35,908 nucleotides of DNA from Parcubacteria bacterium C7867-001 (GTDB lineage: Bacteria > Patescibacteriota > Minisyncoccia > Phycocordibacterales > Phycocordibacteraceae): contig LFCK01000001.1 in assembly GCA_001189095.1 (NCBI GenBank), forward strand, positions 215,251-251,158, written 5' to 3'. The notes beneath the pieces were generated by a model. It saw only the letters and a list, made by a program, of their open reading frames with translations, searched no databases and was not told the DNA's origin. Both the position numbers and the translations under genes were made by a program. Shown in pieces: positions 17,509 through 32,855 of this stretch. How positions within the stretch are numbered: position 1 is the stretch's first letter; the number at the start of each line of letters is the position of its first letter.

Positions 17509-17527
17509 GAATGCTACGATATCGGAT

Positions 17528-18787
17528 ATGCAGCGGCCTGACCTAACGAAATACGAGCTTCCGGATTGTCCGGGGGTGTATCTCTTTACCCTTGGAAAGG
17601 GCCGATCAAAAAAGATTCTCTACATCGGCAAAGCCACGAGCCTGCGCGACCGCGTACGTTCCTACTTTGACGATGACCTCATAGCGACCCGTGGACCGCG
17701 CATCGTCGACATGGTTACCGAAGCGGATGGTCTTATGCACGAGACGACGCCGACGGTGCTTGAGGCGCTGGTGCGCGAAGCGGCGCTTATTCGTGAATAT
17801 CATCCGAAAGCAAACTCGATGGGCAAGGACGACAAATCCTTTCTTTACGCAGTCATCACGAAAGAACCGATTCCGCGCGTGCTCGCGATTCGCGGCACTG
17901 ATCTTGATTTTAAAAAGAAACGCATTGTGGTGGGCGACGTTCCGCTTTCCTCCATGCATGGACCGTTCCCGTCAGGGTACCAGCTGCGCGAAGCGCTTAA
18001 GCTCATTCGGAAAATCTTTCCGTTCTTCGATACACCGCGCCCAGTTGGTGAGGGAACTCGTTTTACCAAAGGGAAAGTCGAGTTCAATCAGCAGATTGGC
18101 CAGTATCCGCGCGATCTCGACAAAGCTGGCTATGCGCGCTCAATACGCAACGTCTCACTCTTTCTTTCGGGGCGCGTGAAGGCGCTGCGTGCGCAGCTCG
18201 AAAAGGATATGAAGACAGCAGCTAAAGACGAGCGGTTCGAAGACGCGGCGCTTGCGCGTAAGCAGCTCTTCTCACTTGATCACGTACAGGATGTCTCCCT
18301 CATTAAGGAAGATCGCGGCGCAGATGAATCAAGTCCGCGCATCGAGGCGTACGATACGGCGCATATTTCAGGAACGAATGCGATAGGTGTGATGACCGTT
18401 ATCGAGAATGGTCTTCCGCTCAAGAAGGAATATCGAACATTTCGTATTCGTGGAGTCGGCGGAAGGTCCTTAAACGATGATATCGCCTCTCTCAAAGAAA
18501 TCCTTTCTCGTCGGTTTAATCATCCTGAATGGTCGTATCCGAAAGCAATCGTGGTCGACGGCGGTAAAACGCATAAGAAAACAGCCGAGGCGCTGCTCGC
18601 TGAACTCGGTATCCAGATTCCGGTCGTTGCGGTGGTGAAGGATGAGAAGCATCGTCCGCGTGAAGTGCTTGGAAGCCTACGCGCTCATGTGCAGGATGCA
18701 GATGTCGTTTTGGCAAATAGCGAAGCGCATCGGTTCTCGATAACGCTTCATAGGAAAGCGAGATCACGCGCCTTGCGTACGTTATAA
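17528..18787 (+). CDS. uvrC: Excinuclease ABC subunit C (short form, no C-terminal HhH)
   Basis: GIY-YIG (PGVY..YIGKA), UVR (FEDAALAR), RNase H-like (RIEAYDTAH, VDGG, EAHRF); start reset to MQRPDL after TGCTACGAT. Confidence 0.92.
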   Translation: MQRPDLTKYELPDCPGVYLFTLGKGRSKKILYIGKATSLRDRVRSYFDDDLIATRGPRIVDMVTEADGLMHETTPTVLEALVREAALIREYHPKANSMGKDDKSFLYAVITKEPIPRVLAIRGTDLDFKKKRIVVGDVPLSSMHGPFPSGYQLREALKLIRKIFPFFDTPRPVGEGTRFTKGKVEFNQQIGQYPRDLDKAGYARSIRNVSLFLSGRVKALRAQLEKDMKTAAKDERFEDAALARKQLFSLDHVQDVSLIKEDRGADESSPRIEAYDTAHISGTNAIGVMTVIENGLPLKKEYRTFRIRGVGGRSLNDDIASLKEILSRRFNHPEWSYPKAIVVDGGKTHKKTAEALLAELGIQIPVVAVVKDEKHRPREVLGSLRAHVQDADVVLANSEAHRFSITLHRKARSRALRTL

Positions 18788-18795
18788 TTTTTCAT

Positions 18796-19761
18796 ATGAG
18801 AGGCACTGTCGTCGGCGTACTCCGTGGAGGGCCATCAAGAGAGCATGAGGTCTCGCTAAAAACGGGTCATGCGATCCTTTCGAACCTCGATATGGATCGA
18901 TTTACGCCGCGCGATATCTATATCGACAAGGCGGGGCTTTGGCACGAACGCGGTGTGCCGACCACGCCTGATCGCGTTCTTCGAAATGTGGATGTGGTCG
19001 TACTCGGACTTCACGGGGAATACGGCGAAGACGGGGAAGTCCAGAAGCTGCTTGAGCGCTACGGAATTCCCTATACGGGCTCCGATTCATTTTCCTCCTA
19101 TCTTGCAATGCATAAATTCCTTGCGAAGGAGCGGGTGACTGAGCGGGGCATTTTGTCCGCTCGTTCGCAGCTTATCGAGCCAAGCGCGGATATTGCGGCT
19201 ATCGTCGCGGAGATAAATCGCACCTTTCCGCAGCCGGTCGTGGTAAAGCCGGTCAAGTGGGGCTCCTCGGTCGGCGTTTCGTTTACGCATGGATATCAAC
19301 CGCTTCTTGAAGCAGTACAGAAATTGCTCGATGAAGGAGCTGGTGGCGTGCTTGTCGAGGAGCGAATCAAAGGAACCGAGGCGACCGTCGGCGTCATTGA
19401 AAATTTCCGTGACGAAGTGCTCTATGCGCTTCCGCCAGTGGAGATCATCCCTCCCGATGCGGATTTCTTTTCGTACGACGCGAAATATTCAGGTGCGACA
19501 CGTGAGATTTGCCCTGCCCGCTTCCCAAAGAAGGTGACCGATGAGCTTATCCGACTCGCCCGTGAGGCACATGAGTCCCTCGGACTTCGCCACTATTCGC
19601 GCTCCGATTTCATCGTCTCTCCGCGCGGCATCTATTATCTTGAAACAAATACGCTTCCGGGGCTTACGACCGAATCCTTGATGCCGAAATCGCTCGCAGC
19701 GGTCGGTGTCTCCTATCCGGACTTTCTTTCGCACCTCGTCGATTTGGCGATGAAAAAATAG
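18796..19761 (+). CDS. ddl: D-alanine--D-alanine ligase
   Basis: GGPSREHEVS, LHGEYGEDG, GSSVG, YDAKY, LETNTLPG. Confidence 0.95.
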   Translation: MRGTVVGVLRGGPSREHEVSLKTGHAILSNLDMDRFTPRDIYIDKAGLWHERGVPTTPDRVLRNVDVVVLGLHGEYGEDGEVQKLLERYGIPYTGSDSFSSYLAMHKFLAKERVTERGILSARSQLIEPSADIAAIVAEINRTFPQPVVVKPVKWGSSVGVSFTHGYQPLLEAVQKLLDEGAGGVLVEERIKGTEATVGVIENFRDEVLYALPPVEIIPPDADFFSYDAKYSGATREICPARFPKKVTDELIRLAREAHESLGLRHYSRSDFIVSPRGIYYLETNTLPGLTTESLMPKSLAAVGVSYPDFLSHLVDLAMKK

Positions 19762-19762
19762 C

Positions 19763-20095
19763 ATGGACGAGCTCGCGAAGAAGAAATGCATACCGTGCGA
19801 AGAAGGTGGAGGTCCACTCACGAAAGAACAAGCGAGGGATCTCATGGAGCATGTTCCCGAGTGGACGCTCATGGAGGATGCGCGAAAGCTCTGGCGACGT
19901 TTTCCGTTCAAGGACTTTGCTGCAGCGCTGGCGTTCACCAATGAAATAGGCGCTTTAGCGGAGGAAGAATGGCACCATCCAGATATAAAGGTCTCATGGG
20001 GTGCGGTCGAAGTGACGCTTTCCACCCACAGGGCACGAGGTCTCACCGAAAACGACTTTATCCTAGCTGCCAAAATAGACTTGCTGCAAAAATAA
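19763..20095 (+). CDS. phhB: Pterin-4a-carbinolamine dehydratase
   Basis: FKDF, HHPD, THRARGLTENDFILAAKID. Confidence 0.9.
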   Translation: MDELAKKKCIPCEEGGGPLTKEQARDLMEHVPEWTLMEDARKLWRRFPFKDFAAALAFTNEIGALAEEEWHHPDIKVSWGAVEVTLSTHRARGLTENDFILAAKIDLLQK

Positions 20096-20124
20096 AAACC
20101 GACACTTGGTCGGTTTTTATTTTT
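20088..20124. terminator. Bidirectional terminator; likely the original tRNA-Ala terminator of the empty site
   Basis: AAAAATAAAAACCGAC-acttg-GTCGGTTTTTATTTTT abuts the left att core. Confidence 0.75.
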
Positions 20125-20221
20125 GTGGAACCTAGGACACTATATTAGAACCTCTCTCATCCAATCGCAGCCAATACATTTCTTACATCTCGTGGACTCA
20201 TGGGGTGGTCTGAAGGGTTGA
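20124..20221 (+). repeat. Left att junction encoding displaced recombinase tail A (WNLGHYIRTSLIQSQPIHFLHLVDSWGGLKG*)
   Basis: Shares CACTATATTAGAACCTCT (20138-20155) with 21891-21908; in frame with the LSR across the core. Confidence 0.8.
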
Positions 20222-20282
20222 GAATGCTCTTCTGGACCTAGAAGCGCTCGGAGATTAGAACCTCCATTCCCGTCACTACTTC

Positions 20283-20311
20283 TTGACCTGCGTCATAAAA
20301 CGTGGTATATA
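20283..20311 (+). promoter_or_regulatory. Sigma70-like promoter
   Basis: TTGACC-17 bp-TATATA; AAAGGAGGT SD before 20365. Confidence 0.6.
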
Positions 20312-20364
20312 GATAATCGGCAAACGATCTTCGTTAACTCAAGCCCCCGAAAGGAGGTGTCAGC

Positions 20365-21018
20365 ATGTCTTTGCCAAAGAAGACGATTGCGGACCTCCTG
20401 TTTGGGGTCCAACTCGTCGGAGCAGTAATCTTCTGCGGCGCGCAGTTCTTGCGCTCGCTTGAGGACGTTCACGGCGTCAGCATTGTTCAGTTCGCTCTTG
20501 CGACAACTTTCGTGGTGTTCAATCTCCTGCTCGGGATAGGCGCTCACCGCGCCCAACCGAGCCGGGTAACCATGCAAGGGATAGTGACGTACATCGTGTG
20601 GGTAGCAATGCTCACCGCCGTAGTCGTCGCTGTCGCAACCAACCGAGAATATCGGTGGAGCATTCAGGATAGTGTCACCCTCGGGATTGCGGTCGTTCTC
20701 ACGATCGGCACGCTAGGGTTCGGTGCGCTGCAAGGCAGACCGATCCGAGACCCGATGACGCTTGCGTTCTTGGCGATCGCGAGCAAGTCAATGCCGCAGC
20801 TACTGCTGGTCTGGAGTATCCTCGAACAAGGAGGTTCCGGCATCCCGGCGGCGAGCATCATTGTTGGACACTGCACCATTCTCATCCGTCTCGGCCAGAT
20901 TTACTTTATGGTTCGAGAAGCGGGTTGGGAGCGGAACCGGGTATGGCTCGCGGTTAGCGAAAGCGCCGCAGAACTGACCTGGATCGCAACGACCACAGCG
21001 TGGCTCGTAATGCTTTGA
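20365..21018 (+). CDS. Multi-pass membrane protein, possibly PQ-loop/SWEET-like
   Basis: About 7 TM; AQFLRS..GVS and SMPQLL repeat-like pattern; strong SD. Confidence 0.6.
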   Translation: MSLPKKTIADLLFGVQLVGAVIFCGAQFLRSLEDVHGVSIVQFALATTFVVFNLLLGIGAHRAQPSRVTMQGIVTYIVWVAMLTAVVVAVATNREYRWSIQDSVTLGIAVVLTIGTLGFGALQGRPIRDPMTLAFLAIASKSMPQLLLVWSILEQGGSGIPAASIIVGHCTILIRLGQIYFMVREAGWERNRVWLAVSESAAELTWIATTTAWLVML

Positions 21019-21055
21019 GGCCCATGTCCCGTAAGACGGATGTGGGTCTCTTTTT
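21017..21055. terminator. Terminator between convergent cassette genes
   Basis: GAGGCCCATGTCC...GGATGTGGGTCTC-TTTTT. Confidence 0.7.
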
Positions 21056-21073
21056 ATACAAAAAACGAATATA

Positions 21074-21781
21074 TCAATCTATACTTGCTTTTACCTGTAG
21101 CCGCGTGTCGCTAATCTTTTTTACTATCACATCCGTTATTGATTGCGTAAGTACGTCTATCTCAGCATTAAGTCTCCTAGCCTCTTGAATTGAAGTAGGC
21201 AATTTGTTGAGAGTATCGCAGACATTAATCGGGCCGTGCGTTTGTATTACGTCGATGTTTTCTTTGTAATTGAGTATTGCATTTCCTGCATAATCCCCAA
21301 CACCTCGAAGTTTATCTATCAACTGATTCCAACTCGAACCCAGTTCGTTAAAGTATGTATGAATATAGGCCGTCACTAATTCCATATCCATATCAACATC
21401 CGCTTTGTCTGTAACGTTATGTGCATCTAGAAAGATGACTCTCTCATCCATGCATTTCTTCACAGCTTCAAGGGAAGCTAACAATGCAGCGCTTTTTTGT
21501 TTGATACCGAGGAGTTTACCAATGATTCTCAATCCTTTCTCTTCAATGGATTCGATTAATTTCAAGTTGTAGGCATAGCGCCTATCGTGACTAGCTTGCA
21601 AGAGACTTAAGAGGAGAGCTACGATCGTCAAAAATCCTATAATGAAATTTGGATCTATACCTTGCTCACTCAGGAAGTTCCTGAAGGTATCGCAGGATAG
21701 ATATATACCTAGCAGTACTACGACACCTACCAACGCAATAAATATTGCGTTTTTCTTAAAACTTTTTAGGGCTCCATCCAT
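21074..21781 (-). CDS. Hypothetical protein: 2 N-terminal TM plus helical/coiled-coil domain
   Basis: 235-aa AT-rich ORF; TATACT 6 nt before ATG. Confidence 0.75.
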   Translation of the reverse strand: MDGALKSFKKNAIFIALVGVVVLLGIYLSCDTFRNFLSEQGIDPNFIIGFLTIVALLLSLLQASHDRRYAYNLKLIESIEEKGLRIIGKLLGIKQKSAALLASLEAVKKCMDERVIFLDAHNVTDKADVDMDMELVTAYIHTYFNELGSSWNQLIDKLRGVGDYAGNAILNYKENIDVIQTHGPINVCDTLNKLPTSIQEARRLNAEIDVLTQSITDVIVKKISDTRLQVKASID

Positions 21782-21808
21782 GCCAAAAGTATACCTAAGG
21801 TTTCGAGA

Positions 21809-21959
21809 AGATTAGAACCTCCCAAAACCCAAGCGCGCCAATACGGAATGACGGAAACCTTGACTTCGTGAACAAATGTGGTCCCTACTTCACTATATTA
21901 GAACCTCTATCATGGAGAGAAAAGCTATACGGTTCCTACAAATCGTTGATACCTGGTAA
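21809..21959 (+). repeat. Internal att junction (P-P' like): frameshifted recombinase remnant plus tail B (WSLLHYIRTSIMERKAIRFLQIVDTW*)
   Basis: GTGAACAAATGTGG vs GTGAACGAATGTGG at 32772 (13/14); RLEPPK vs ILEPPK; right half matches 20124-20203. Confidence 0.8.
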
Positions 21960-22073
21960 TACTTTCCTTGCCCATCACCAACCTCCTTATCAATTCTCGT
22001 AGGTCGTTTCTCATATTGGGAAGTACAGATTAGAACCAGGTGGCTAATCATTTAGAAACGATATTATCGAATC

Positions 22074-22595
22074 TCAGCGAACGAAGTACGGGAAGTAGTG
22101 CATTTGATGGAAGGTGTGTCCTCCTTCATGCAGTAAGATTGCCAGAATCAAAACCGCGACTCCTATATATAAGAGGAGATAGGTAGAAGCGAAGAAGCGT
22201 CCACTCCCGTTGTTTGAGCCAGCATTTTCCCACTCCTTCGGATATAAGGATGACTCTTCGTCATCGAAAGTTTTTGGAGTGAATAGTCCGAGAGCTTTTT
22301 CCAGCCGCACAGCTACCTGTTGCTGTTTCTGGAATCCTTTGTAGAGGTCATCAAGGAAGTTGAAACGAAGTGCCCAAAAGGCAACGACTACTCCGACTAT
22401 ATAAAGGAGCTTCTGACATGGAGAGAACTCCACATCACTTTGGATAAGCCAACCACTAGCCGCAAGCATAAGGCCGAGTGCCCACACACAGATATTCTGA
22501 ATTCGCTCTCGGATTGCATGTATGGACTTGTACCGCTCCTCTAGACCAGATACGAGGATGGATACTTTCTGCTCGTTGTCGAAGTGATGTGTCAT
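22074..22595 (-). CDS. 3-TM membrane protein, putative CBASS effector
   Basis: ATGA overlap with the cyclase stop; three hydrophobic helices. Confidence 0.75.
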   Translation of the reverse strand: MTHHFDNEQKVSILVSGLEERYKSIHAIRERIQNICVWALGLMLAASGWLIQSDVEFSPCQKLLYIVGVVVAFWALRFNFLDDLYKGFQKQQQVAVRLEKALGLFTPKTFDDEESSLYPKEWENAGSNNGSGRFFASTYLLLYIGVAVLILAILLHEGGHTFHQMHYFPYFVR

Positions 22596-23476
22596 GGGGC
22601 TAGATAATTCCACGCGGCTTTAGTAAATACTTCGGCCTTCGTAGGAGTGTGGTTAGTTCCTCGAAGTAGCCATTCAAGCTGACTAACCTCCTTATAGTTT
22701 GGATGAGCAGAGGCATCTCTCATATCGGTCCAGATATGAGAAAGAACATCGCGGGCATCCTCTCGGTAAGTGCTATTGAGGAATCGGTGTTCAGGAGCAT
22801 TCCAAACGAGTGATTCGATAAGGAAGGATGACATACTATCCTTCGCAAGAAGTCCCTTGTCTTCCATTTCCCTGCGAGTGTTTTTGAGAACACGGACAAT
22901 CGCCTTGTACGCCTGTGATGTCTCGTCATTCTTTGCCACGCCACTTGCGTAGTGCTGTTCGGGATAGCTGTGAATCACAGTCCCTCCATCCGTAAGAATC
23001 CCGATGCCTACTTCTGATACGAGATTAGGAGAGTTATACCGTTTCGACTGGAAAGCAGGTACAACATCAGCATTCACTCGGTAGGTATTGCCTGCAACTC
23101 TGATGCATTTGTTTTTTCTAGTCGCATAGCCCAATCCGAATTTGTCATTCAATGCCTGATGAACATCATTCTTGAATTGAGCAAAAGTATAGACGGGTGT
23201 TGATACGCCAGCCCAATGACCAGCGTGGTGTTCATTCGGAAGGTTCCGTAAGTCCGAGTAGTAGATGTCATCGTAGACCACGGCAATATCAACATCACTG
23301 TCTGTACGAATATTTGTACGATTTCTGTGGGAACCTTGGTGGATGATAGTAATCGAATTACCGAACCGCTCACGCATGGCTTCCACCACCATGCTTTTTG
23401 CATTCTCACAGCGATTATCCTCAGTCTCGCTGAGTGCTTTTGCCCATGTGTTGATGCGCTCATCACTGACATTCAT
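22592..23476 (-). CDS. CD-NTase (cGAS/DncV-like, CdnE-like) cyclic oligonucleotide synthase
   Basis: QGSHRNRTNIRTDSDVDI, KNKCI, ADVVP, YPEQH..GVAKN, YKAIVRVLK, SFLIESLVWN; TATTAT 6 nt before ATG 23476. Confidence 0.88.
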   Translation of the reverse strand: MNVSDERINTWAKALSETEDNRCENAKSMVVEAMRERFGNSITIIHQGSHRNRTNIRTDSDVDIAVVYDDIYYSDLRNLPNEHHAGHWAGVSTPVYTFAQFKNDVHQALNDKFGLGYATRKNKCIRVAGNTYRVNADVVPAFQSKRYNSPNLVSEVGIGILTDGGTVIHSYPEQHYASGVAKNDETSQAYKAIVRVLKNTRREMEDKGLLAKDSMSSFLIESLVWNAPEHRFLNSTYREDARDVLSHIWTDMRDASAHPNYKEVSQLEWLLRGTNHTPTKAEVFTKAAWNYLAP

Positions 23477-23548
23477 GCCTACATAATACGCCTCTAAAAA
23501 AGTCAATGCAAAATTCCTTTTAAGGGACCTAGTGGCCTTGTCTATTAC

Positions 23549-23576
23549 AAACAGAGCCCCTTCTGGGGCTCTGTTT
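23549..23576. terminator. Terminator of the metal operon
   Basis: AAACAGAGCCCC-ttct-GGGGCTCTGTTT. Confidence 0.8.
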
Positions 23577-23593
23577 CGACACCTGCAAGTCTC

Positions 23594-24220
23594 TTAAAGA
23601 AGTATTAGTAATAAGCCAGCAAGAGCTGCCATCCCGAAATCTTCAATAAGAGTAATCTTAGTCAATGGAACTTTAAGAAAGGTTCCAAGGCACGCGCACA
23701 GGAATTCTTCCTTCCGAGCTATCTTTATAGCTACTCCAATGCCACTGAACAACATTACGGCTAATTCTACCCACAGCAGAGCTGGGCTATGTATTCCAGC
23801 GAGCATTAATAGACCAAAGCCTAGTTCGAGGAATGGGTAGATATATCCGTATCCCATCCACTTCTGTGCAAGCAGGTCATAGGTTGAGTACCCTTCTGCG
23901 AATCCCTTAAGGTCTAGGAGCTTGAAGCCAGCAAAGACGATAAAGAACCCGGCCATGAAGTACCCTATGGTACTGGTAAGGGCGAACGTTCCATTGAAGT
24001 AGTCAGCGAGTGAAGCTGCAACGGTTGAGATCGTAAGCAGACCAAAGATGACAATGAGAGGGATATAGCTCTTCCAGGTGATTGGACCCAGGCCTCTATC
24101 CTCCATCATTTGCTTAGGTTTAGCCTTCTCTGTGCCTTCCAGTACCAGAGCCATTCCGCACTTCGGACAGCGACCTGGACCTTCTTGCTGTATCTCTGGA
24201 TGCATTGGGCAGATGTACAT
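23594..24220 (-). CDS. Heavy-metal-binding domain fused to MauE/DoxX-like membrane domain
   Basis: YICPMHP..GRCPKCGM; YPFLEL, CACLG. Confidence 0.85.
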   Translation of the reverse strand: MYICPMHPEIQQEGPGRCPKCGMALVLEGTEKAKPKQMMEDRGLGPITWKSYIPLIVIFGLLTISTVAASLADYFNGTFALTSTIGYFMAGFFIVFAGFKLLDLKGFAEGYSTYDLLAQKWMGYGYIYPFLELGFGLLMLAGIHSPALLWVELAVMLFSGIGVAIKIARKEEFLCACLGTFLKVPLTKITLIEDFGMAALAGLLLILL

Positions 24221-24222
24221 AG

Positions 24223-24696
24223 TTAGATTTGTTCGTAGCTGATAACAATGCGCTCCTTATCTTTCAGTACCGTGCTCTCGAAGGAATCTACTTCTACACC
24301 ATCAACTGTGATGCGAACACGATGATTCGCATCCGCCTTAAAGCCTAGGATTTCGTCCTTACTGAACGGCTGCTTCCATACGGCAAAGAAATCAGCAAGC
24401 GTGTAGTCTCGCTTCTCAGGCGACTCTACATGAATCACTCCATCTGGAGTATGTGTATGAAGCGCAGTCATACAGGTTTGCTGAACGCCGATATTCGTAG
24501 GCACAGAGACGTTCTCTCCATTCGCCACAATCTCGAGTATTGGGTGGACATGGAATCCCCCTGCCATTTCGTCATCACAGAGAAGCGCTAACTCACGGTT
24601 CGTAAGTTGGCTTATCGGCTTCTCTGGACTTCGAGAGAAATACAGCAGTCCTACTACTACAGCAATAAGCGAGATGATAATAATCGCGCTCTTCAT
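24223..24696 (-). CDS. Membrane-anchored His-motif protein, probable metal binding
   Basis: N-terminal TM; HVH, HTH..GVIHVE. Confidence 0.7.
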   Translation of the reverse strand: MKSAIIIISLIAVVVGLLYFSRSPEKPISQLTNRELALLCDDEMAGGFHVHPILEIVANGENVSVPTNIGVQQTCMTALHTHTPDGVIHVESPEKRDYTLADFFAVWKQPFSKDEILGFKADANHRVRITVDGVEVDSFESTVLKDKERIVISYEQI

Positions 24697-24697
24697 C

Positions 24698-25096
24698 CTA
24701 CTGTCCGTACCAAGCTGCCTTCCAATCCTGCATCTGCTTAATCTCTGTGTTCTGTGCGGAGATTATATTTTTCGCAAGGTCTTTTATCTCCTGGTGCTTT
24801 GCATTCTGAAGAGCAGCTTCAGCCATCATTACAGCTCCCTGGTGGTGCATAATCATCTCCGTAAGGAAGGCTTGGTCGAAAGCATCTCCGGTCTTTCCGT
24901 TAAGAGACTGCATCATAGAATCCATCTGTCCCTGCATGCCACTATTCATCGAGCCTCCCATCATTGTGCCGTCAGGCATCGTATGACCACCAGTTGTAGC
25001 AACTGGCTGAGGAGCCTTACTCATACCAAGCGCGTATCCTCCTCCGGCACCGATAATAAGAGCAATGAGTCCGATAACAATTACATTCTTTTCCAT
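24698..25096 (-). CDS. DUF305/CopM-like Met/His-rich copper-binding protein
   Basis: HTMPDGTMM, FDQAFLTEMIMHHQGAVMMA, IISAQNTEIKQM. Confidence 0.88.
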   Translation of the reverse strand: MEKNVIVIGLIALIIGAGGGYALGMSKAPQPVATTGGHTMPDGTMMGGSMNSGMQGQMDSMMQSLNGKTGDAFDQAFLTEMIMHHQGAVMMAEAALQNAKHQEIKDLAKNIISAQNTEIKQMQDWKAAWYGQ

Positions 25097-25135
25097 AGAT
25101 TTTTGTTAGTTAAGTAAGGCAAACAGGAAATGAAT

Positions 25136-25504
25136 CTATGGAGCCTTAGGATGAAGAATTCCGCTTGAGAATAATTCTTGCAGTAGTGGCGGTGCTGGAT
25201 AGAAACGCCTTCGATATCCTGGTGGTCGTTCAGGCTTTAAAACAGTTAACCAGAGCCAAGCTACCGCTAGGACAGGTATCGCAAAAGTGAGGACTTCTAC
25301 CAACGTAATAGCAAAAGTCTGTTGCCAATTGGTGAGATGGTCCAAGATAGACATGGAGCAGAGGGATGCCTCTCCTTGCATAAAGGGGCATCCGCCCATG
25401 CTATGGTCCATAGGCATTGCCATAAGGATAAGCATTAAAAACGGCACTACGAGCACCAGCAGAATTGCTGACCAGGAGAAAAATCTCTGTATGGGCTCAG
25501 ACAT
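25136..25504 (-). CDS. Small membrane protein heading the metal operon (DUF2946-like architecture)
   Basis: TM, MDH..CPFM..C, TM, Pro-rich C-terminus; TAGAAT 6 nt before ATG. Confidence 0.65.
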   Translation of the reverse strand: MSEPIQRFFSWSAILLVLVVPFLMLILMAMPMDHSMGGCPFMQGEASLCSMSILDHLTNWQQTFAITLVEVLTFAIPVLAVAWLWLTVLKPERPPGYRRRFYPAPPLLQELFSSGILHPKAP

Positions 25505-25586
25505 CAACCTATTCTATACCTTATCTCTCTAGGAAAAAGGTACACTTATATTTAGGTACCTATTAGCTAATTTCTATAGACTTCTT

Positions 25587-26039
25587 ATGAATATGAAAGA
25601 TACCTCCTACAGCAAACTTGCCCTCATGGCAGGACTCCATGTAGTCGCCATGTTCGTCCTGATGTTCGCCATGGTAAACACGTTTGCGAACGCCGTTCCG
25701 AATATCAACTTCTTGTACATGGGGTTCATGATGACCGCGCCGATGCTCATCCTTGAAATGCTCTTGATGGGCATGATGTACAAGGACAAGAAATTGAACA
25801 AGATTGTAATTCTAATCGGATTCATTATTCTAGTGGTCTCATTCCTAATGATTAGGTATCAGACCTTTGTAGGAGATAAGGGCTTTCTCCAATCAATGAT
25901 TCCCCATCACTCCGGTGCTGTACTTATGTGTGAGAAGGCAAAGATAACAGACCCAGAGATCCAACAGCTCTGCGCAAATATTATTGCTAGTCAGCAGGAA
26001 GAAATTAACCAGATGAATGAGATTCTAGATAGGCTGTAA
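25587..26039 (+). CDS. Membrane DUF305-domain protein
   Basis: 3 Met-rich TM, then FLQSMIPHHSGAVLMC..SQQEEI. Confidence 0.85.
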   Translation: MNMKDTSYSKLALMAGLHVVAMFVLMFAMVNTFANAVPNINFLYMGFMMTAPMLILEMLLMGMMYKDKKLNKIVILIGFIILVVSFLMIRYQTFVGDKGFLQSMIPHHSGAVLMCEKAKITDPEIQQLCANIIASQQEEINQMNEILDRL

Positions 26040-26186
26040 AGTTTAAGATAATAAGGTAAATCTCACCATAGAGTCGTTTTACTTCCACACAAGTAGGTAT
26101 TACCATAACTAGGTTCGACAGCCGAATAGAAATGACCTAACCCGCAAGCTTCACGCTACGGTATGGTCGAAAATCGTAAGCCATAG

Positions 26187-26267
26187 AAAACCCGTCATCA
26201 GGGCGTGGCTTACGTTATCAGGGGAAACTCTGGTAGGGCCGCAAGGCCTCCTGGTGGCGGGTTTTTT
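26187..26267 (+). ncRNA. Structured RNA resembling phage C4/CI antisense RNAs
   Basis: 16-bp closing stem, two GNRA hairpins, unpaired 11-mer complementary to flanking repeats. Confidence 0.65.
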
Positions 26268-26303
26268 GCTACCCACCAGGAATTACAAATCGTAAGCCAC
26301 GAT

Positions 26304-26756
26304 ATGAATAAAGAAATTCCTAATGGAGAAAAGCCTTCTCAAAAACAGATAACGAAAGGAGAAGGCATTACAGCAATCGTAGTTTTGATAATCTTCTGTT
26401 TTGTTGCATACCAGGCAATCACTTCAGTTCCGAAGGACAACAATACTGCACCCGCACCTGTTGCTGCTCAACCTACAAGGCATTCAGATATAGATGCCTA
26501 CATTGATGCTCAGGCAATAGTCGAGAAAACTCTTAAGGCTCCCTCTACGGCCAAGTTCCCATCATCTTCACACGCGACTGTAGAGCATTACGCGACAGAC
26601 GGATTCAAAGTAAGTTCGTATGTCGATTCACAAAACGGATTCGGAGCAATGATTCGTAGTGAGTGGACGGTCTTGTTCGAGTATGTGGACGAAAAGCTCA
26701 ATATCTACCAAGTAATCGTAGATGGAGAGGAAGTGTATAGGAAGCCAGGCACATAA
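26304..26756 (+). CDS. Single-TM exported protein (LKAPSTAKF / VDSQNGFGA type)
   Basis: Motif pair typical of phage/MGE membrane-anchored proteins; ATG just after the antisense target. Confidence 0.75.
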   Translation: MNKEIPNGEKPSQKQITKGEGITAIVVLIIFCFVAYQAITSVPKDNNTAPAPVAAQPTRHSDIDAYIDAQAIVEKTLKAPSTAKFPSSSHATVEHYATDGFKVSSYVDSQNGFGAMIRSEWTVLFEYVDEKLNIYQVIVDGEEVYRKPGT

Positions 26757-26899
26757 AGCCTGTCGTGGGTCCCCACGATCCTCCCTACAGTACGTTTAGG
26801 GTCATGGTAATGGTTTCTTATGGCCTTACGGAATAGACACCCCTCGTGGGTGCTTTTTCGTGTGCAAAGTGGCAATCTATATATGTACTGCACAATTGC

Positions 26900-27661
26900 A
26901 TGGATATTAACTTTCGATACACCCCACAAATACAGAGATACAACTCAGAGATGAGCCGGTATTGGAATGAGTGTCGCAAGCAAATGCCCGACCACGAGAT
27001 ACCGACATTCGATCCCCTCGTGATTAAGACCACGATTCCAGGAGAACCACTTGATGATGACTTGGGAGTAAACCGAACTGCTTATCTCAACTGGCTCGAA
27101 AAGCATCATGCAATCCGTTATCTAGAGGAAATGGATGGCATGACCACAGGCCATCAAGTACATCCTGATGGGGAGCACGAAATATACCCTTCCGACTTCA
27201 CACTTCATCTTCTCGATTTTAGACCCGTCATCAGTCTGGAGAACTCCTTCCACAATGGAGCAAATCCATTTACGAAGACAGACCCATACGCAGAAAGTCG
27301 ATACATTCGCATGAAGAATGACGGCTCATTCGTGTACGGGGGTGCTGGACGAGTAAAGCCGATAAAATTCAAGAGCTACAAGTCCCTCTACTATCGAGTA
27401 TTCCGTGCCGTCTACGAACTTGCTCCACACAACAAGGAATGTGTTCCCTATGATTCTATCGAGGAGCACATTGTCCGTCTTGGAGTTCCACCGGAAGCTA
27501 ACAGCGAAAAGCGACGACAGAGAATCAGAGAGGCAGTATCCAAGTCCCTTGAAGCAAACGCAAAGAGTCTCGACCTCCCCTTGAAGTACGAAGGAGTCCC
27601 AACCCTCACTCTTATTCAAGGAAAGGGATTTCGCTTCTCCAATCCTACAATTGAGGACTAG
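26900..27661 (+). CDS. Hypothetical protein with possible C-terminal winged HTH
   Basis: Helix RRQRIREAVSK followed by wing-like IQGKGFRF. Confidence 0.6.
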   Translation: MDINFRYTPQIQRYNSEMSRYWNECRKQMPDHEIPTFDPLVIKTTIPGEPLDDDLGVNRTAYLNWLEKHHAIRYLEEMDGMTTGHQVHPDGEHEIYPSDFTLHLLDFRPVISLENSFHNGANPFTKTDPYAESRYIRMKNDGSFVYGGAGRVKPIKFKSYKSLYYRVFRAVYELAPHNKECVPYDSIEEHIVRLGVPPEANSEKRRQRIREAVSKSLEANAKSLDLPLKYEGVPTLTLIQGKGFRFSNPTIED

Positions 27662-27699
27662 TAAGAAATAAAGAAAACCTCAAGAATTTCTAAAGATAT

Positions 27700-27727
27700 A
27701 AGACGGCTTTGTTGAGCCGTCTTTTTT
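27700..27727 (+). terminator. Intrinsic terminator
   Basis: AAGACGGCT-ttgttg-AGCCGTCTTTTTT. Confidence 0.75.
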
Positions 27728-27834
27728 GCTGCACGGTCAATTTTCTTTTTCGTACTTACCCTTTTTTGAGAGCACTCTTAAGAGAGCAACTGGGGGTATC
27801 ACTCCACGAGCATTAAAAAAATAAAACATTCCAT

Positions 27835-28029
27835 ATGAAAGCAGTTCAAATGATTACTGACGTGCAGGATTTTCTTAGCAACAAGGGCTACATCAAGACT
27901 TCGATGCTTGTTGAGCCGAACGGCAAGGTCCACCTCGTTCTGCGAGACAAGAAACGCGGTCAGACGATAACGGCACTCGTAAACGAAGTCGTGAAGCCAG
28001 ATATTAGCAACCTTGAGCCAATCTTCTAG
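27835..28029 (+). CDS. Small hypothetical protein
   Basis: 64 aa, first gene of a tightly packed operon. Confidence 0.65.
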   Translation: MKAVQMITDVQDFLSNKGYIKTSMLVEPNGKVHLVLRDKKRGQTITALVNEVVKPDISNLEPIF

Positions 28030-28031
28030 TT

Positions 28032-28247
28032 ATGGAAATTCCACCAGAAGTAAAGGAATTCATGGAGGTAAGCGGTAATCACTACAGCGTCATCACTGCC
28101 GACATGCCTGACGGAACTAAGAGCGTAATCTTGTTCCCGTCAGACCCAGGAGGAGAGAATGCTGGAGAGATAACAGAGGTCATTGAAGATATAGGGCGTC
28201 GCATTCTCGATGATGCCCCGACTTTCGAAGAATACTATGCACTCTGA
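28032..28247 (+). CDS. Small acidic hypothetical protein
   Basis: 71 aa, 2-nt gap upstream, overlaps primase start. Confidence 0.65.
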   Translation: MEIPPEVKEFMEVSGNHYSVITADMPDGTKSVILFPSDPGGENAGEITEVIEDIGRRILDDAPTFEEYYAL

Positions 28248-30060
28248 AAAACTACTCGAAGCGGCACTCGCCTACCTCGACGATTGCCGAACGGTCATTC
28301 CTCTCAACGGGAAAGTTCCTGTAATCCCTTCTTGGAAGGAGTACCAGGAAGGCAAAGCCCCGACTGCCGAAGAAATGACAGCATGGTTCAAGACCCACGG
28401 GGATAAAATCACGGGGCTGGGCATGGTCACGGGATATGTTCATGGACTTGCCGTTCTTGATTTGGAAAATGACGAAGACCCCACACGCTTTGAAATGCCG
28501 CCAACAGCAGTCAGTCGTACTGGCAGTGGTGGATGGCATTACTTCTTCGACTTCCCGAAGAATACGGACTTCGTTAAGTCAGGGAGTTTGATTCCCTCTG
28601 GTATCCACGGGGACATGAAGGCAGACGGAGGATATGTCGTAGTGCCTCCCTCAATTCATCCGATAACAGGCAATGCATATGAGTGGATTACCCCTCTCAC
28701 ACTTGAGACAGAGTTGCCTTCTATGCCAGAGTGGCTCGTCAAAATCGAAGATGATCGTAAGAAGAATGATATCGAGGCAACCGATTGGAAGGAAGTCTTA
28801 AGCGGAGCAAAAGAAGGTAGTCGGCACGAAACCGCAGTCAGACTCATGGGTAAGCTCGCATACCATCTTCCAGCTAAAGACTGGAACGATGTGGCTCGCC
28901 CTCTACTCCATGCTTGGAATTTGGAATTCAATCAACCACCTCTTCCCGACAAGGAGATAGATTCCATTTTTCGAGGCATTTCACAGAAGCAGAAAGGTCA
29001 AGGGGACGAGGGCACAACTTACGACTCCAAGGAGAATGTGCCGCACGCTACGCCCCGCACCCTTCTCACACTCTCCGCCATCATGACGATGCCCGAATCG
29101 GAACGACCTGAGTACCTCGTGTACGGCCTTATACCAGAGAAAGGCATCACAGCCGTAAGCGGCCATCCTGGAAGCGGAAAGAGCTGGTTCATGCTCCACC
29201 TCGCAAAGTGTGTCGCTTCTGGTGAGTCTTTCCTTGGACGCTTCAAGACGAAGTCAGGCAAAGTACTCATCATTGACGAAGAACAAGGAGCTTGGGAGCA
29301 ACGCCGTCGCATGGAGTTGCTTGGCTGTGCACCAGAGCTACCTGTCTATTTCTACTGCCTTGATGGGTTCAAGCTCGACAAGAAGGAAGACATGGACGCC
29401 CTGTTAAAAACCGTTAAGGAACAGGAAATCAGCCTTGTGATGCTCGACCCCTTCGTAGCTATCCATTCTCAGGACGAAAACTCAGCAGAAGGGGCACAGA
29501 AGGTCATGGAAGCACTTCAGAGATTCAACCTTGCAGGTGCAACGGTACTCTTCATTCATCACCACAGAAAAAGCACCTTCGGCTCCACAGGAGGAGCACA
29601 GAGCCTTCGCGGCTCGTCAGCTTACTCTGGTCGTCTTGATTCTCACATTACCGTGGACAAGAAATCCACCACTCCTTCGGAACAGCATCTCGACATCGAG
29701 CATGTGAAGTCGCGTAGAGGCCAGAATGTTGAGAAGTTCCAGGTTGTACTCACACAAGAAGGAGACGCGCCAGATAGCCCAATCAATCTTCGCTACGCAG
29801 ACGCCGAAGACCGCATTACGAAGAAGGATGAGGCACGCACGCTTATCATCACTTTCCTAGCCTCTAACGGGGACGCGACAAAGGAGGAGATTACCAAGGC
29901 CGTCCAAGACGAAGCGGAGATAGGAACGCGCAACATAGCAGAAGCCCTTTCTGTCATGACTAAAGACGAAAGCCTGACCATCTCCAAGGAGGGTAAGAAA
30001 AATAAATACCACCTGGAGGAAAAGGCACTTGCAGAGCCCGATGATGAACCACCTTACTAA
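28237..30060 (+). CDS. Bifunctional primase-polymerase fused to PriCT-like and AAA_25/RepA-like helicase domains
   Basis: LGMVTG, VLDLE, TGSGGWHYFF, GGYVVVPPS; GHPGSGKS, IDEE, LDP, IHHHRK, RGSSA. Confidence 0.9.
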   Translation: MHSEKLLEAALAYLDDCRTVIPLNGKVPVIPSWKEYQEGKAPTAEEMTAWFKTHGDKITGLGMVTGYVHGLAVLDLENDEDPTRFEMPPTAVSRTGSGGWHYFFDFPKNTDFVKSGSLIPSGIHGDMKADGGYVVVPPSIHPITGNAYEWITPLTLETELPSMPEWLVKIEDDRKKNDIEATDWKEVLSGAKEGSRHETAVRLMGKLAYHLPAKDWNDVARPLLHAWNLEFNQPPLPDKEIDSIFRGISQKQKGQGDEGTTYDSKENVPHATPRTLLTLSAIMTMPESERPEYLVYGLIPEKGITAVSGHPGSGKSWFMLHLAKCVASGESFLGRFKTKSGKVLIIDEEQGAWEQRRRMELLGCAPELPVYFYCLDGFKLDKKEDMDALLKTVKEQEISLVMLDPFVAIHSQDENSAEGAQKVMEALQRFNLAGATVLFIHHHRKSTFGSTGGAQSLRGSSAYSGRLDSHITVDKKSTTPSEQHLDIEHVKSRRGQNVEKFQVVLTQEGDAPDSPINLRYADAEDRITKKDEARTLIITFLASNGDATKEEITKAVQDEAEIGTRNIAEALSVMTKDESLTISKEGKKNKYHLEEKALAEPDDEPPY

Positions 30061-30221
30061 TGGCCATCTCTAGCAAAAGCCTTGAACGCTTCCGAGCAAT
30101 CTATGAGAGCCAGTACGGGAAAATTCTTACTGACGAGGAGTTAGACCGAAAGGCACAAATGCTCCTGAATCTCTACAAGGCTATCTACGGCAAACCAATT
30201 AAAAGACGTAAACGCAAATAA
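30060..30221 (+). CDS. Small 53-aa protein absent from the ORF track
   Basis: TAATG coupling; MAISSKSLERFRAIYESQYGKILTDEELDRKAQMLLNLYKAIYGKPIKRRKRK. Confidence 0.7.
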   Translation: MAISSKSLERFRAIYESQYGKILTDEELDRKAQMLLNLYKAIYGKPIKRRKRK

Positions 30222-30225
30222 TCCT

Positions 30226-30726
30226 ATGAACGATAAATTAAAAATTGCTGTCTACATCCGAGCCAGCATGGGTCTAGGTGAGAACCGAGGGGCTACTGCT
30301 CTATTCCAAGAACGAGAGATTCGTTCCTATGCTAGAGATAAAGGCTACAAGATTGACGAGCAGCATGTCTATCACGATGCCGTATCCGCAAAGGTACCAG
30401 GACGACCCTCTTTCGAGGAGATGATGAAGGCAGTAGAGGAAGGAAAAATCAACGGCATTCTCACCTACGACCTAAATCGACTTGCTCGTAATCCTGTAGA
30501 TGGAGGGCGCATCATCTGGCGAATACAACAAGGCACTCTCACGGTTATCAGCACTCAAAACGGAGGCACTGTTTACTCGCCAGGCACAGACATGTTGATG
30601 CTCTACCTGCACTTCGGAATGTCGAACCAGTTCTCATTGAACCTTGGCAAAGCTGGACCCAAACCAACTTGTCGCAACTGCCACCACGACTGCTATACGC
30701 GACCAGAAGAGGAAGTACAGCTATAA
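30226..30726 (+). CDS. Serine recombinase catalytic-domain-only paralog
   Basis: YIRAS, SAKVPGRP, NRLARNPVDGG; ends in CRNCHHDC. Confidence 0.85.
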   Translation: MNDKLKIAVYIRASMGLGENRGATALFQEREIRSYARDKGYKIDEQHVYHDAVSAKVPGRPSFEEMMKAVEEGKINGILTYDLNRLARNPVDGGRIIWRIQQGTLTVISTQNGGTVYSPGTDMLMLYLHFGMSNQFSLNLGKAGPKPTCRNCHHDCYTRPEEEVQL

Positions 30727-30809
30727 ACACTACAACGTAGAAATATATGTACTTTTAGAACGCACCTAATACGATAGAAATATCCAAATGTGTCAAGTAC
30801 ATATCCTCC

Positions 30810-30983
30810 ATGATGAAGAAACAAATTACTAGTAAAACAAATCACCTTACCAAGACAGCACAAAAGCTATTCGTTGAACGTCTACTACGGGAATCAGGCT
30901 TTTCTCCTAAGAAAAAGTTCTATGTGAAGGATAGGAGTGGAAAGCTCATCGTGAGATTCACTAAAGAGCCTAACTATGAATAG
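30810..30983 (+). CDS. Small basic 57-aa protein, possibly AbrB/SymE-like; absent from the ORF track
   Basis: LRESGFSPKKKFYVKDRSGKLIVRF; overlaps the next ATG. Confidence 0.55.
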   Translation: MMKKQITSKTNHLTKTAQKLFVERLLRESGFSPKKKFYVKDRSGKLIVRFTKEPNYE

Positions 30984-31191
30984 TGTCGAGGAACTACGAG
31001 ATTACATTGTTGCAGACACAATCAAGCAGATTGAGTCCATGTCGAGGGAGGAGTTAGTACAGATTCTGGTGATTATCACCACAACTCCTCTCGAACAGAT
31101 GGACGCAAACGAACTGCTTGCCTTCCGCAAGGAGTATGTCGGCAGATGGCTTCCTAAAGAACATGAACGAGATAGACACAAGCAAAATTAA
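30976..31191 (+). CDS. Small helical hypothetical protein
   Basis: 71 aa, overlaps neighbours on both sides. Confidence 0.6.
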   Translation: MNSVEELRDYIVADTIKQIESMSREELVQILVIITTTPLEQMDANELLAFRKEYVGRWLPKEHERDRHKQN

Positions 31192-32827
31192 ATATGTAGC
31201 TTATGCTCGCAAGTCTACCGACGACAGCGACAAGCAGATAAACTCCATCCCTGACCAGCTCAAGGAAATTGACCGCATTGGCAGGGGTTTGGTTCGTGCC
31301 GATACGCTAACGGACGAAAGATCAGCAAAGGTGCTTGGTAGACCTGGCTTCGAGCAGATGAAAAATCTCATTGAATCAGGAAAGGCACAGGGAATCATTT
31401 GCTGGAAGATAAACCGATTGGCACGCAATCCCGTAGACGGAGGGTGGATTATTTGGAAGCTTCAGCAAGGAGCCATACGACACCTCAAAACAGACGATGG
31501 AGACTACTATCCTGGTAGCGACATGCTTCTCCTATATCTCCATTTCGGCATGGCCAACCAGTTCAGCCTCAACCTGAGTAAGGACGTTACGAGAGGCATG
31601 TTGAGCAAAGCTGAAAGCGGAAGACGACCAGGCTCTGCTCCTTTGGGATACTTGAACAGCAACAACGGCAATAAGGGAGAGGAGTTTATCTACATAGACC
31701 CTGTTCGGGGTCCCATCATACAAAAGATGATGGAGTGCATGCTCGCTGGTACTCACAACGCTCCTCAGATATTAGAAATTGCTACCGAGGAATGGGGTCT
31801 ACGCACTCGTCCGACCAAGGACCACCCACGCGGTTGCAAACTCACGAAGTCTGCTTGGTACAAAATACTTCAAAACCCTTTCTTCTATGGAAAGTTTCAA
31901 TATCCTATCGGACACAAAGACGCTGAAGGAAAACGTCAGAAGATTTGGGTTGATGGAACTCATGATGCTCTTATTACCTATGAGCAGTTCCGAAAAATTC
32001 AGAAGATTCTAAAGCAACACGCTCCCAAACGAACAAACCAAACTTTTGCCTATATCGGGCTAATGCGCTGTGGAGGTTGCGGAGCACGCATCACCGCAGA
32101 ACGAAAGAATAAGACGCAAAAGAACGGTAATAAACACCAGTACGTCTACTATCGTTGTACCGGCCAAGTAGATAGAGACTGTCAGCAGAAATCAGTCCGT
32201 GAGGACCGATTGGAAGAAGCAATGCAGGAATTTCTGTCTTCAATGGAGATATCTCCTGAATTCCATGCATGGGCAATTGCTGAATTCAAAAAAGATTACC
32301 AAAAGGAAAAGTCCGACAAGAACGTTATTGGAGGGAATCAGCAAACAAGGCATGACGAGATAAAAGGCATGCTTCGCACCCTGCTCGATAGCCATCTCCT
32401 CGGACTCATTAGTGTTGATGACTTCTCAGAAAAGAAAAATACCTTAGAGCAGGAGCTGACAGGACTGAAGCCTTACCTCCCTGGTTCCGACATCGAACTT
32501 CCAGACTGGACTGAGGATGCCAAAAACCTACTCACCTTTGCTGAAAGAGCTAGTAAGGAGTTCAAGGAGGGTGAATTCGAGAAGCGAAGAGCAATCATAG
32601 CTGCCCTTGGAACTGAGCATGTATTAAACCAGGGAGCGCTTACTTTCGAGGTAGAGAAGCCTTTAGAGGTTCTAATAAAGACTCCTAAAGTTCCAGGTGT
32701 TGATTTTGAAATATTAGAACCTCCAAAAAGTGAAGCAGAATATACACAAATTGGCACTTTCGTGCCAAAAAGTGAACGAATGTGGACCGTACAGGATTCG
32801 AACCTGCGACCCTCTCATTGCAAATGA
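31163..32827 (+). CDS. Large serine recombinase (resolvase, recombinase, Zn-ribbon, coiled coil); 3' end runs into antisense tRNA
   Basis: YARKS, NRLARN, APLGY, NPFFYG, CGGCG..YYRC..C; last residues TVQDSNLRPSHCK are tRNA-derived. Confidence 0.93.
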   Translation: MNEIDTSKIKYVAYARKSTDDSDKQINSIPDQLKEIDRIGRGLVRADTLTDERSAKVLGRPGFEQMKNLIESGKAQGIICWKINRLARNPVDGGWIIWKLQQGAIRHLKTDDGDYYPGSDMLLLYLHFGMANQFSLNLSKDVTRGMLSKAESGRRPGSAPLGYLNSNNGNKGEEFIYIDPVRGPIIQKMMECMLAGTHNAPQILEIATEEWGLRTRPTKDHPRGCKLTKSAWYKILQNPFFYGKFQYPIGHKDAEGKRQKIWVDGTHDALITYEQFRKIQKILKQHAPKRTNQTFAYIGLMRCGGCGARITAERKNKTQKNGNKHQYVYYRCTGQVDRDCQQKSVREDRLEEAMQEFLSSMEISPEFHAWAIAEFKKDYQKEKSDKNVIGGNQQTRHDEIKGMLRTLLDSHLLGLISVDDFSEKKNTLEQELTGLKPYLPGSDIELPDWTEDAKNLLTFAERASKEFKEGEFEKRRAIIAALGTEHVLNQGALTFEVEKPLEVLIKTPKVPGVDFEILEPPKSEAEYTQIGTFVPKSERMWTVQDSNLRPSHCK

Positions 32828-32855
32828 GATGCTCTACCAACTGAGCTAACGGCCC
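32783..32855 (-). tRNA. tRNA-Ala(TGC), CCA not encoded
   Basis: GGGCCGTTAGCTCAGTTGGTAGAGC..TTGCAA..GGTTCGAATCC..ACGGTCCA; G3:U70 pair. Confidence 0.97.

Follow-up and report, generated by a model that had tools for sequence, protein, structure and literature searches.

The 3′ end of a tRNA-Ala(UGC) gene in Parcubacteria bacterium C7867-001, an uncultured bacterium of the Candidate Phyla Radiation (CPR/Patescibacteria), looks like a docking site at which gene units accumulate. In the stretch of 35,908 nucleotides analysed here (contig LFCK01000001.1, positions 215,251 to 251,158; hereafter the window, whose numbering is used throughout), this gene adjoins a 10.9-kb island that encodes a large serine recombinase (LSR), and the island in turn adjoins a short cassette of 1.75 kb (20125-21881) with two genes and no recombinase. 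Judging from the sequence, we consider it likely, at a probability of roughly three in four, that the cassette is a non-autonomous unit of an LSR-driven family of elements at tRNA-Ala, that it is older than the island and that the island has pushed it outward. Successive integrations at tRNA-Ala had been proposed in an original prediction made from the letters alone, and both the anatomy of the junctions and the states of the locus in relatives support them. Specifically, the island is most likely the later arrival, inserted between tRNA and resident cassette, since in other genomes of the genus (numbered G, with their fetched loci numbered L) cassette-like units abut tRNA-Ala (G062, G160, G022 and G236), an island stands alone (G203) or the site is empty (G027).

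Anatomy of the tandem at the tRNA-Ala gene

The tRNA gene (32782..32855, minus strand; ARAGORN and Rfam) would offer its T arm and acceptor end as a B-type half-site, and the arms that frame the two elements are lettered here from the outer cassette end towards it. On the minus strand, the cassette is bounded by the A site (20124..20160), a mimic of the tRNA 3′ end that runs from GGTTCTAAT to CCAC and is read as a P-type half-site, and by the tRNA-proximal, P′-type C arm (21808..21881), which ends in the core CCACATT on the tRNA strand (21875-21881). A distal arm of ~140 bp, delimited by a 12-sequence alignment, extends from the A site to the B site, a second copy of the 9-mer ATTAGAACC 110 bp inward (20126..20265, minus strand). 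The island (21882..32781; Pfam, PADLOC and Rfam, collinear with the island of G203) has as its putative P-type outer half-site the D site (21877..21913, minus strand), with the same 28-nt build as the A site; its inner ATTAGAACC, the E site (22029..22037, minus strand), is the counterpart of B. Within the LSR 3′ end lies an inverted pair of 9-mers 36 nt apart, F and G (32665..32724), of which G corresponds to the 9-mer of the C arm. The F/G pair also occurs in G035 and G203 and resembles what may be a complete palindromic binding site.

The junction between the two elements (21808-21913) is chimeric, as had been predicted, its left part resembling the stretch from the LSR 3′ end to the tRNA and its right part the left boundary of the cassette. 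On the right, 21877-21913 and 20124-20160 are alike at 31 of 37 nt, and the 18-bp identity reported earlier is confirmed as a contiguous block within this alignment (20138-20155 and 21891-21908). On the left, 21808-21834 is 81% alike to 32710-32736, and a 14-mer ahead of the core, GTGAAC[A/G]AATGTGG, agrees at 13 of 14 positions between 21868-21881 and 32772-32785. Read in the LSR frame, 21809-21826 encodes RLEPPK where the LSR itself has ILEPPK, and a difference of 2 nt in length, the C arm being the shorter, puts it out of frame with the LSR-side arm at the core. The left half had been described as a remnant of the LSR; the core match, the RLEPPK reading and the frame shift all stand, but the stretch is not merely a decaying tail, being instead the conserved proximal arm of units that lack an LSR (see below).

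All of these sites are marked by the 9-mer ATTAGAACC, which occurs seven times in the window (20144, 20254, 21811, 21897, 22029, 32668 on the minus strand, and 32713) versus 0.19 expected, a count reached in none of 100 shuffles; an 11-mer, ATTAGAACCTC, has six copies in the entire 812-kb genome, none of them away from this locus. Read on the tRNA strand, the 9-mer is GGTTCTAAT and differs by one base from the T-loop stretch GGTTCGAAT of the tRNA. Both the A and D sites have the form GGTTCTAAT-N15-CCAC and the tRNA the form GGTTCGAAT-N10-CCAC, so that from 9-mer start to CCAC end the distance is 28 nt in A, D and the G203 arm versus 23 nt in the tRNA. The outer 9-bp motif thus lies 5 nt further out in the element arms than in the tRNA (left half), as in serine integrases, where, according to extracts of PMC3783163, the crossover is 5 bp more distant from a 9-bp motif bound by the zinc-ribbon domain (ZD) in attP than it is in attB. 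The 9-mer would accordingly be a candidate zinc-ribbon-domain motif. On the tRNA strand the junctions read GGTCCAC/ATTC at the tRNA, GACCAC/ATTT at D and TTCCAC/AAAA at A, where a hairpin follows; past CCAC the sequence is ATTCGTTCAC on the tRNA side, ATTTGTTCAC on the D side and AAAA on the A side, which places the exchange within CCAC(ATT).

Two features are consistent with recognition of the cassette arms in trans. The C and G arms differ by one mismatch in their first 10 nt, and the 18-nt block shared by A and D covers the 9-mer and the next 6 nt; CACTATATTAGAACCTCT is common only to the A and D arms of the window, the other ten arms in the 12-sequence alignment being different. This specific sharing fits both arms being read by one LSR. 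The A site further aligns with the distal ends of units in G203, G035, G126, G180, G018, G062, G022 and G160, each ending in CCAC and continuing into an unrelated flank.

The LSR itself (569 aa, 31118..32827, plus strand) contains Resolvase, Recombinase and Zn_ribbon_recom domains (PF00239, 5.5e-16; PF07508, 5.1e-09; PF13408, 1.3e-10). Its nearest solved structures are the SPbeta and A118 integrases, and the serine of its RKS motif aligns with their catalytic, nucleophile-bearing region. The final 15 codons and the stop lie within the tRNA gene (32782-32827); because this end is encoded by tRNA DNA, the C-terminus of the protein must differ between the integrated and excised forms, a difference that extracts of PMC3146451 discuss for the Dehalococcoides recombinase DsiB.

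A reading in which the repeats are regulatory or RNA motifs behind tRNA genes, rather than recombination sites, is extremely improbable. The 9-mer motif accompanies LSR 3′ ends at many tRNAs, the arms stop exactly at CCAC with unrelated flanks past it, and neither strand of the distal arm showed a conserved RNA fold (consensus energies of −1.7 and −2.1 kcal/mol, no convincing covariation), on which grounds this arm was rejected as a structured RNA.

Units, islands and empty sites in relatives

To place the locus in its family, we searched 222 genomes of the genus for LSR homologues at E ≤ 1e-20 and found them in 123. A tRNA gene (Ala, Asn, Gln, Asp, Gly or Glu) is present in the fetched locus for 22 of the 30 best LSR loci, in most cases at the LSR 3′ end or overlapping it, and often with GGTTCTAA ~60 nt behind the tRNA; four more of these 30 end at a tmRNA 3′ end (Rfam), with LSRs 38-41% identical to that of the window. 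The tmRNA-ending LSRs (L043-L046) carry the same proximal arm, hairpin and 9-mer included, in parallel with the Dehalococcoides ssrA islands. Across the genus, AGGTTCTAATMT occurs at 71 places in 43 of the 222 genomes, versus 18 places for a reversed control. In this genus, the LSR family inserts directly behind the CCAC with which tRNA or tmRNA genes end. The nearest relative of the window LSR, in G203, is 72% identical and belongs to an 11.8-kb island directly behind tRNA-Ala, with the same proximal arm, a distal arm of its own in which two 9-mers lie 110 bp apart, and no cassette.

Arms of the cassette type recur without a recombinase. BLASTN with the C arm finds matches in 15 of the 221 other genomes of the genus, and in G062, G160, G022 and G236 the C arm follows tRNA-Ala directly, at the head of units of 0.9-2.3 kb that contain no LSR. 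Overall, units framed by such arms measure 0.9-3.4 kb, and none contains an LSR. The C arm (21808-21876) is 82-96% identical to the arms elsewhere and the distal arm 75-85%, whereas the ddl DNA of the same genomes is 70-73% identical; among 38 open reading frames (ORFs) of 12 units, BLASTP at 1e-3 gave no match to each other. The cargo of these units includes an AbiU2-type HEPN protein, CHAT, SIR2 with HerA, a PifA/KAP NTPase and a TIR-like protein. When the 12 distal arms are aligned, the A-B arm of the window groups with the LSR-less units, and the D-E arm and the arms of G203 and G035 form separate sub-types; the stretch 20125-21881 would therefore be a unit of an LSR-less sub-family and the island a unit of another.

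The chromosomal side of the site is also recognizable. In the window, uvrC (17171-18787), ddl (18796-19761) and phhB (19763-20095), all on the plus strand, precede a bidirectional terminator hairpin 3′ of phhB (20087..20125; arms pairing at 17 of 17 positions), which would be the B′ side of the original attachment site. An empty site joining the tRNA to this hairpin had been predicted and is present in G027 (L036), where the tRNA-Ala 3′ end, the terminator hairpin and a convergent phhB follow each other with nothing else between, in the same build. Among 29 relatives located via ddl, three (G035, G022 and G018) have such arms, and most sampled relatives have unrelated sequence past the tRNA CCAC. 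In G018, G126, G158 and G191, a further unit is wedged between the tRNA and the C arm, ending in GGTCCAC or a near copy (in G191, GGTCGCAC). The comparison of phhB-tRNA-Ala loci called for by the original prediction thus brought out cassette-only, island-only, empty and tandem states, and given these varied states 20124-32786 is not one invariant block, which would have refuted the prediction by its own terms.

Some of the related loci deserve description in their own right. The inserts between tRNA-Ala and the C arm in G126 (L075 9937-10124) and G191 (L083 ~10035-10264) are non-coding, ~190-230 nt long, and comprise a hairpin and two copies of the tRNA 3′ end, one inverted (mirrored) and one direct and terminal. 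The unit of G022 (L040 1342-3111) has two genes, each followed by a B-type 9-mer site, ahead of a single A-type end, past which a third arm with hairpin starts another unit. In G020 (L039 7160-19270), ~12 kb without an LSR match separate tRNA-Ala from a B-type site, and the A-type end has lost its 9-mer, pointing to the decay of a large unit. With respect to ddl and phhB, tRNA-Ala(UGC) is convergent in some species and co-directional in others, with or without an island (L036, L022, L027 and L034 versus L008-L011); an LSR-mediated inversion of the tRNA and array relative to ddl-phhB was considered and dropped, because the convergent empty sites of G027 and G007 show that neither orientation depends on an island.

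Order of insertion and evidence against it

We propose the following order of events as the simplest reading; half-site dominance and present-day mobility within it are conjectural. LSR elements would insert immediately past the 3′ CCAC of tRNA-Ala(UGC), with sister lineages using other tRNAs or tmRNA. Each unit would carry a proximal arm of ~70 nt, made up of the core, ATT[T/C]GTTCAC and the 9-mer GGTTCTAAT at ~+58, and a distal arm of ~140 nt that ends in the 28-nt mimic of the tRNA 3′ end, GGTTCTAAT-N15-CCAC. From an empty site, in which the tRNA faced the hairpin of phhB, the cassette would have inserted beside the tRNA with the phhB terminator on its other side; the 10.9-kb island would then have inserted at the tRNA CCAC and displaced the cassette outward. 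Were the recombinase to read mainly the tRNA half of its target, anything past CCAC, even the arm of an older unit, would still serve as a target, and repeated insertion at CCAC would leave the newest unit adjoining the tRNA. The wedged units of G018, G126, G158 and G191 likewise imply that newcomers would always insert at the tRNA and displace older units. Having kept both arms but no recombinase, the cassette could leave only if the island took it along or an LSR acted on it in trans.

Several observations weigh against this reading. At the level of the sites, no inverted 9-mer is found at the symmetric P′ position, the inner 10-15 nt that flank the core forming an imperfect inverted repeat only, and the scheme does not account for the further 9-mer copies, namely B and E some 110-130 bp inward of the distal ends, G at +58 and the inverted F at +105 in the LSR 3′ end. 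According to extracts of PMC3783163, attP and attL are not a substrate pair for canonical phage serine integrases, so that insertion beside a resident arm would need relaxed selectivity; acceptance of a tRNA half plus anything is, by analogy, what tandem staphylococcal cassette chromosome (SCC) elements and ssrA islands seem to imply. Homologues of the cassette gene ORF217 are 84-88% identical in G146 and G181 and lie outside any such arms; the ddl of G146 is only 69% identical, and G181 had no ddl match in that search. No excision product was found among the contigs of public sequencing runs, which are the only form of these data. Lastly, four of the nine genomes with strong C arms (G018, G136, G158 and G236; 84-98% complete) have no LSR match at the E ≤ 1e-20 threshold, and the best match in G062 is 1.9e-21; many such LSR-less units may be stranded.

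The last of these points bears on the possibility that the cassette itself is a stranded relic, an older full element whose recombinase was deleted and which is now fixed and immobile, with arms that persist for another cause, such as a proximal arm acting as promoter and a distal arm as insulator or terminator. Besides the genomes devoid of an LSR match, a decay intermediate exists in G035, whose 4-kb unit has the same arms and retains only LSR residues 437-569, the last 133; RLEPPK is still readable in the C arm; and in eight of the units examined the first gene starts ~20-50 nt past the arm 9-mer and reads away from the tRNA. In the cassette, too, the first gene past the proximal arm, ORF235, reads away from the tRNA side. 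The promoter scan called no promoter in the arm, however, and non-coding arms that enclose unrelated cargo yet are more alike than the ddl DNA of the same genomes can hardly be accounted for unless there was recent movement or the sites are under selection. We therefore regard such a relic as unlikely, if still a serious contender.

A different concern is the assembly. The host genome is 98.7% complete and comprises 5 contigs, of which the first contains the window, and the sequencing-run data consist of k=31 contigs of public runs (Logan), without raw reads. Two separate contigs of the probable source run cover the elements, one the cassette (18800-21860, depth 12.3) and the other the island (21852-32808, depth 16.2); they meet within 21852-21860, and none of the contigs listed crosses the junction with 31 nt to each side. 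The tandem join is thus that of the deposited assembly, and this too counts against the proposed order. The break falls where it does because the 51-nt stretch 21831-21881 is identical to the G062-type arm, an identity which further implies that another organism in the sample shares it. The tandem could then be an artefact, in which the cassette truly abuts the tRNA and the island comes from a co-occurring relative with the same 51-nt arm and tRNA; these two shared stretches are exactly where the contigs break, and the island contig is deeper (16.2) than its flanks (12.3 and 13.1), which we take as a caveat only. Such an artefact is nonetheless very unlikely: a 51-nt repeat should be below normal read length and the larger k-mers of assemblers, a block peculiar to this genome is common to its A and D arms, and independent tandems occur in G018, G126, G158 and G191.

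Other runs add little on the join. Contigs of runs X3-X5 leave 20282-21763 uncovered and cover the LSR region little, and are uninformative. A joint from 20265 to 21809 in run X2, seen in one contig with a shorter side of 29 nt at a likeness threshold of 85, connects the two identical 14-mers of the B and C sites; since the contig may be another organism's, it was not used as evidence.

It is also conceivable, though quite unlikely, that the whole 12.7 kb (20125-32781) arrived as one composite, accretion having taken place in an earlier host and the outermost sites having recombined to move the pair. The 18-nt block common only to the A and D arms of the window would suit such a joint arrival, and tandem transfer of a cis-mobilizable element (CIME) with an integrative and conjugative element (ICE) is documented in extracts of PMC5704250. 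Against it, the arms belong to different sub-families (C/AB type versus G/DE type), and pieces identical or nearly so to the distal cargo of the island (21917-27237) occur in contigs of three metagenome runs of other studies (X3-X5), from a pond, freshwater and wastewater. Later insertion of the island beside a resident cassette remains our preferred account.

Cargo and comparison with known systems

The DNA between the cassette boundaries holds, as predicted, only two convergent ORFs with hydrophobic segments, separated by a strong terminator hairpin (21017..21050, plus strand; 13-bp stem followed by a T run) that had likewise been anticipated. ORF217 (20365..21018, plus strand; 217 aa) is a polytopic membrane protein with ~5 hydrophobic segments and no assigned function, and ORF235 (21074..21781, minus strand; 235 aa) has two N-terminal membrane helices and a helical C-terminal part. 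Promoters of their own, which the two genes had been credited with, were not borne out: a promoter scan called one site, inside ORF235, versus 2.8 expected, and none upstream of either gene, a TTGACC-N17-TATATA at ~20284-20312 being seen by eye only. In base composition, the cassette (47.8% G+C) and the island (46.5%) are set off from the left (53.2%) and right (51.5%) flanks, and the cassette is itself heterogeneous, at 57.6% in ORF217 and 39.5% in ORF235.

Neither protein matched a family in Pfam, PADLOC or PHROGs. A search for function gave, in PDB profiles, only a designed repeat protein (E 0.16) and, in the Atlas, unnamed clusters and structural matches under the bar save one to a histidine-kinase-like helical protein (TM 0.55); a PQ-loop/SWEET-like lead for ORF217 scored 0.77-0.79 only. 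ORF235 has no homologue in the other 221 genomes of the genus and 19 metagenome homologues at 36-78% identity, one lying directly 3′ of tRNA-Gln and co-oriented with it in six of 12 recovered metagenome loci, which makes ORF235 a recurrent tRNA-adjacent cargo gene.

The island carries a CBASS-type cyclase (PADLOC 2.2e-93) with a membrane protein, metal/redox genes, a LOOT RNA, a PrimPol-helicase and two serine recombinases, the second of which (166 aa, 30226..30726, plus strand) has a catalytic domain only (Pfam Resolvase 1.3e-15; PHROG integrase/invertase). The segment 22074-23506 (minus strand) is probably a minimal CBASS, and the LOOT RNA (26134-26249; Rfam 66.3 bits) adjoins a PHROG-matching gene.

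Among serine-recombinase systems, the SCC composite and pseudo-SCC elements insert by CcrAB or CcrC at the 3′ end of a conserved gene, with recombinase-less, repeat-bounded elements in tandem. Their target is rlmH rather than a tRNA, the elements are tens of kb long, and Ccr, set apart here by description, represents another LSR lineage; the Ccr properties are those quoted in extracts of PMC3146451. The closest published system that we found, by analogy, is that of the Dehalococcoides ssrA-specific islands, in which, as far as extracts of McMurdie et al. (2011; PMC3146451) describe, the LSR DsiB adjoins a small catalytic-only DsiA, the LSR 3′ end overlaps the RNA gene, islands stand in tandem and those without the integration module were proposed to be cis-mobilizable. 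Both loci thus combine an LSR and a small serine recombinase beside attL with an LSR 3′ end that overlaps an RNA gene, DsiB being set beside the window LSR by description, and a sister LSR clade in the present genus targets tmRNA too. On the same partial account, the two differ in target and crossover (tRNA-Ala at its extreme 3′ end, CCAC, versus ssrA at the T loop) and in the shared sequence (exactly only CCAC(ATT), with an imperfect 28-nt mimic at 5-nt longer spacing, versus a 20-bp direct repeat); units of the window type, at 0.9-3.4 kb, are also much smaller than the Dehalococcoides islands and have conserved arms of ~70 and ~140 bp and defence-like cargo. In the full-text literature, as far as its matching extracts go, we found no description of such elements in CPR bacteria, the matches concerning inoviruses.

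Accretion in three steps, namely integration, decay to a CIME and new integration at the gene-proximal att site, is described in extracts of PMC5704250. In keeping with a CIME, neither cassette ORF matches a recombinase family in the databases searched and both att-derived ends, the A/B and C arms, are intact and alignable with those of other units. The CIME-ICE and integrative and mobilizable element (IME) systems, such as ICESt1/ICESt3 of Streptococcus thermophilus, rely, in the same extracts, mostly on tyrosine integrases and long exact repeats, whereas the window has a serine recombinase and a core of 4-7 nt. With the phage integrases A118/LI and SPbeta SprA, the window LSR shares its domain order and an outer motif of 9 bp that lies 5 bp farther from the crossover in the half-site of the element than in that of the host; it differs in its weak similarity (E 6e-14 to SPbeta), its RNA-gene-end target, the extra distant motif copies and an apparent acceptance of a resident arm as the second target half. 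The locus as a whole supports an SCC- or CIME-like accretion by a serine recombinase.

The original prediction had likened the array to either an integron or SCC, and only the SCC-like (or CIME-like) part holds. Integrons resemble the array in that small recombinase-less cassettes stack promoter-proximally, the newest beside the anchor, and the defence cargo of sedentary chromosomal integrons is a parallel. Yet the array is no integron by any defining feature: no tyrosine recombinase was found among the 24 window ORFs scanned (17171-35660), it has no IntI, attI or folded attC-like sites, and window-type cassettes can hold several genes, in either orientation. A functional counterpart of integrons is a more tentative proposal, one that we hold to be possible at somewhat less than even chances. 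In it, tRNA 3′ ends would anchor a serine-recombinase cassette system of short LSR-less units with fixed arms of ~70 and ~140 bp and interchangeable, mostly anti-phage cargo, moved by an LSR in trans and stacked newest first, with the proximal arm perhaps a promoter and B, E, G and F accessory directionality sites.

Set against the systems compared, the elements described here differ in their tRNA targets, the crossover at the extreme 3′ end, the imperfect mimic with its attP/attB offset in place of a long exact repeat, the very small units with standard arms and the defence-type cargo. Because the attB-type (tRNA) and attP-type (mimic) half-sites can be read from sequence, the family offers natural LSRs whose target would be set mainly by the tRNA half-site, of use in studies of site selection by serine integrases. 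Little mobile DNA is known from CPR/Patescibacteria, whose genomes are very small. In related species the same end sequences surround quite different, often anti-phage, genes, and the locus suggests a route by which CPR bacteria may exchange accessory and anti-phage genes, as small, standard-ended cassettes that dock behind tRNAs and are served by serine recombinases.

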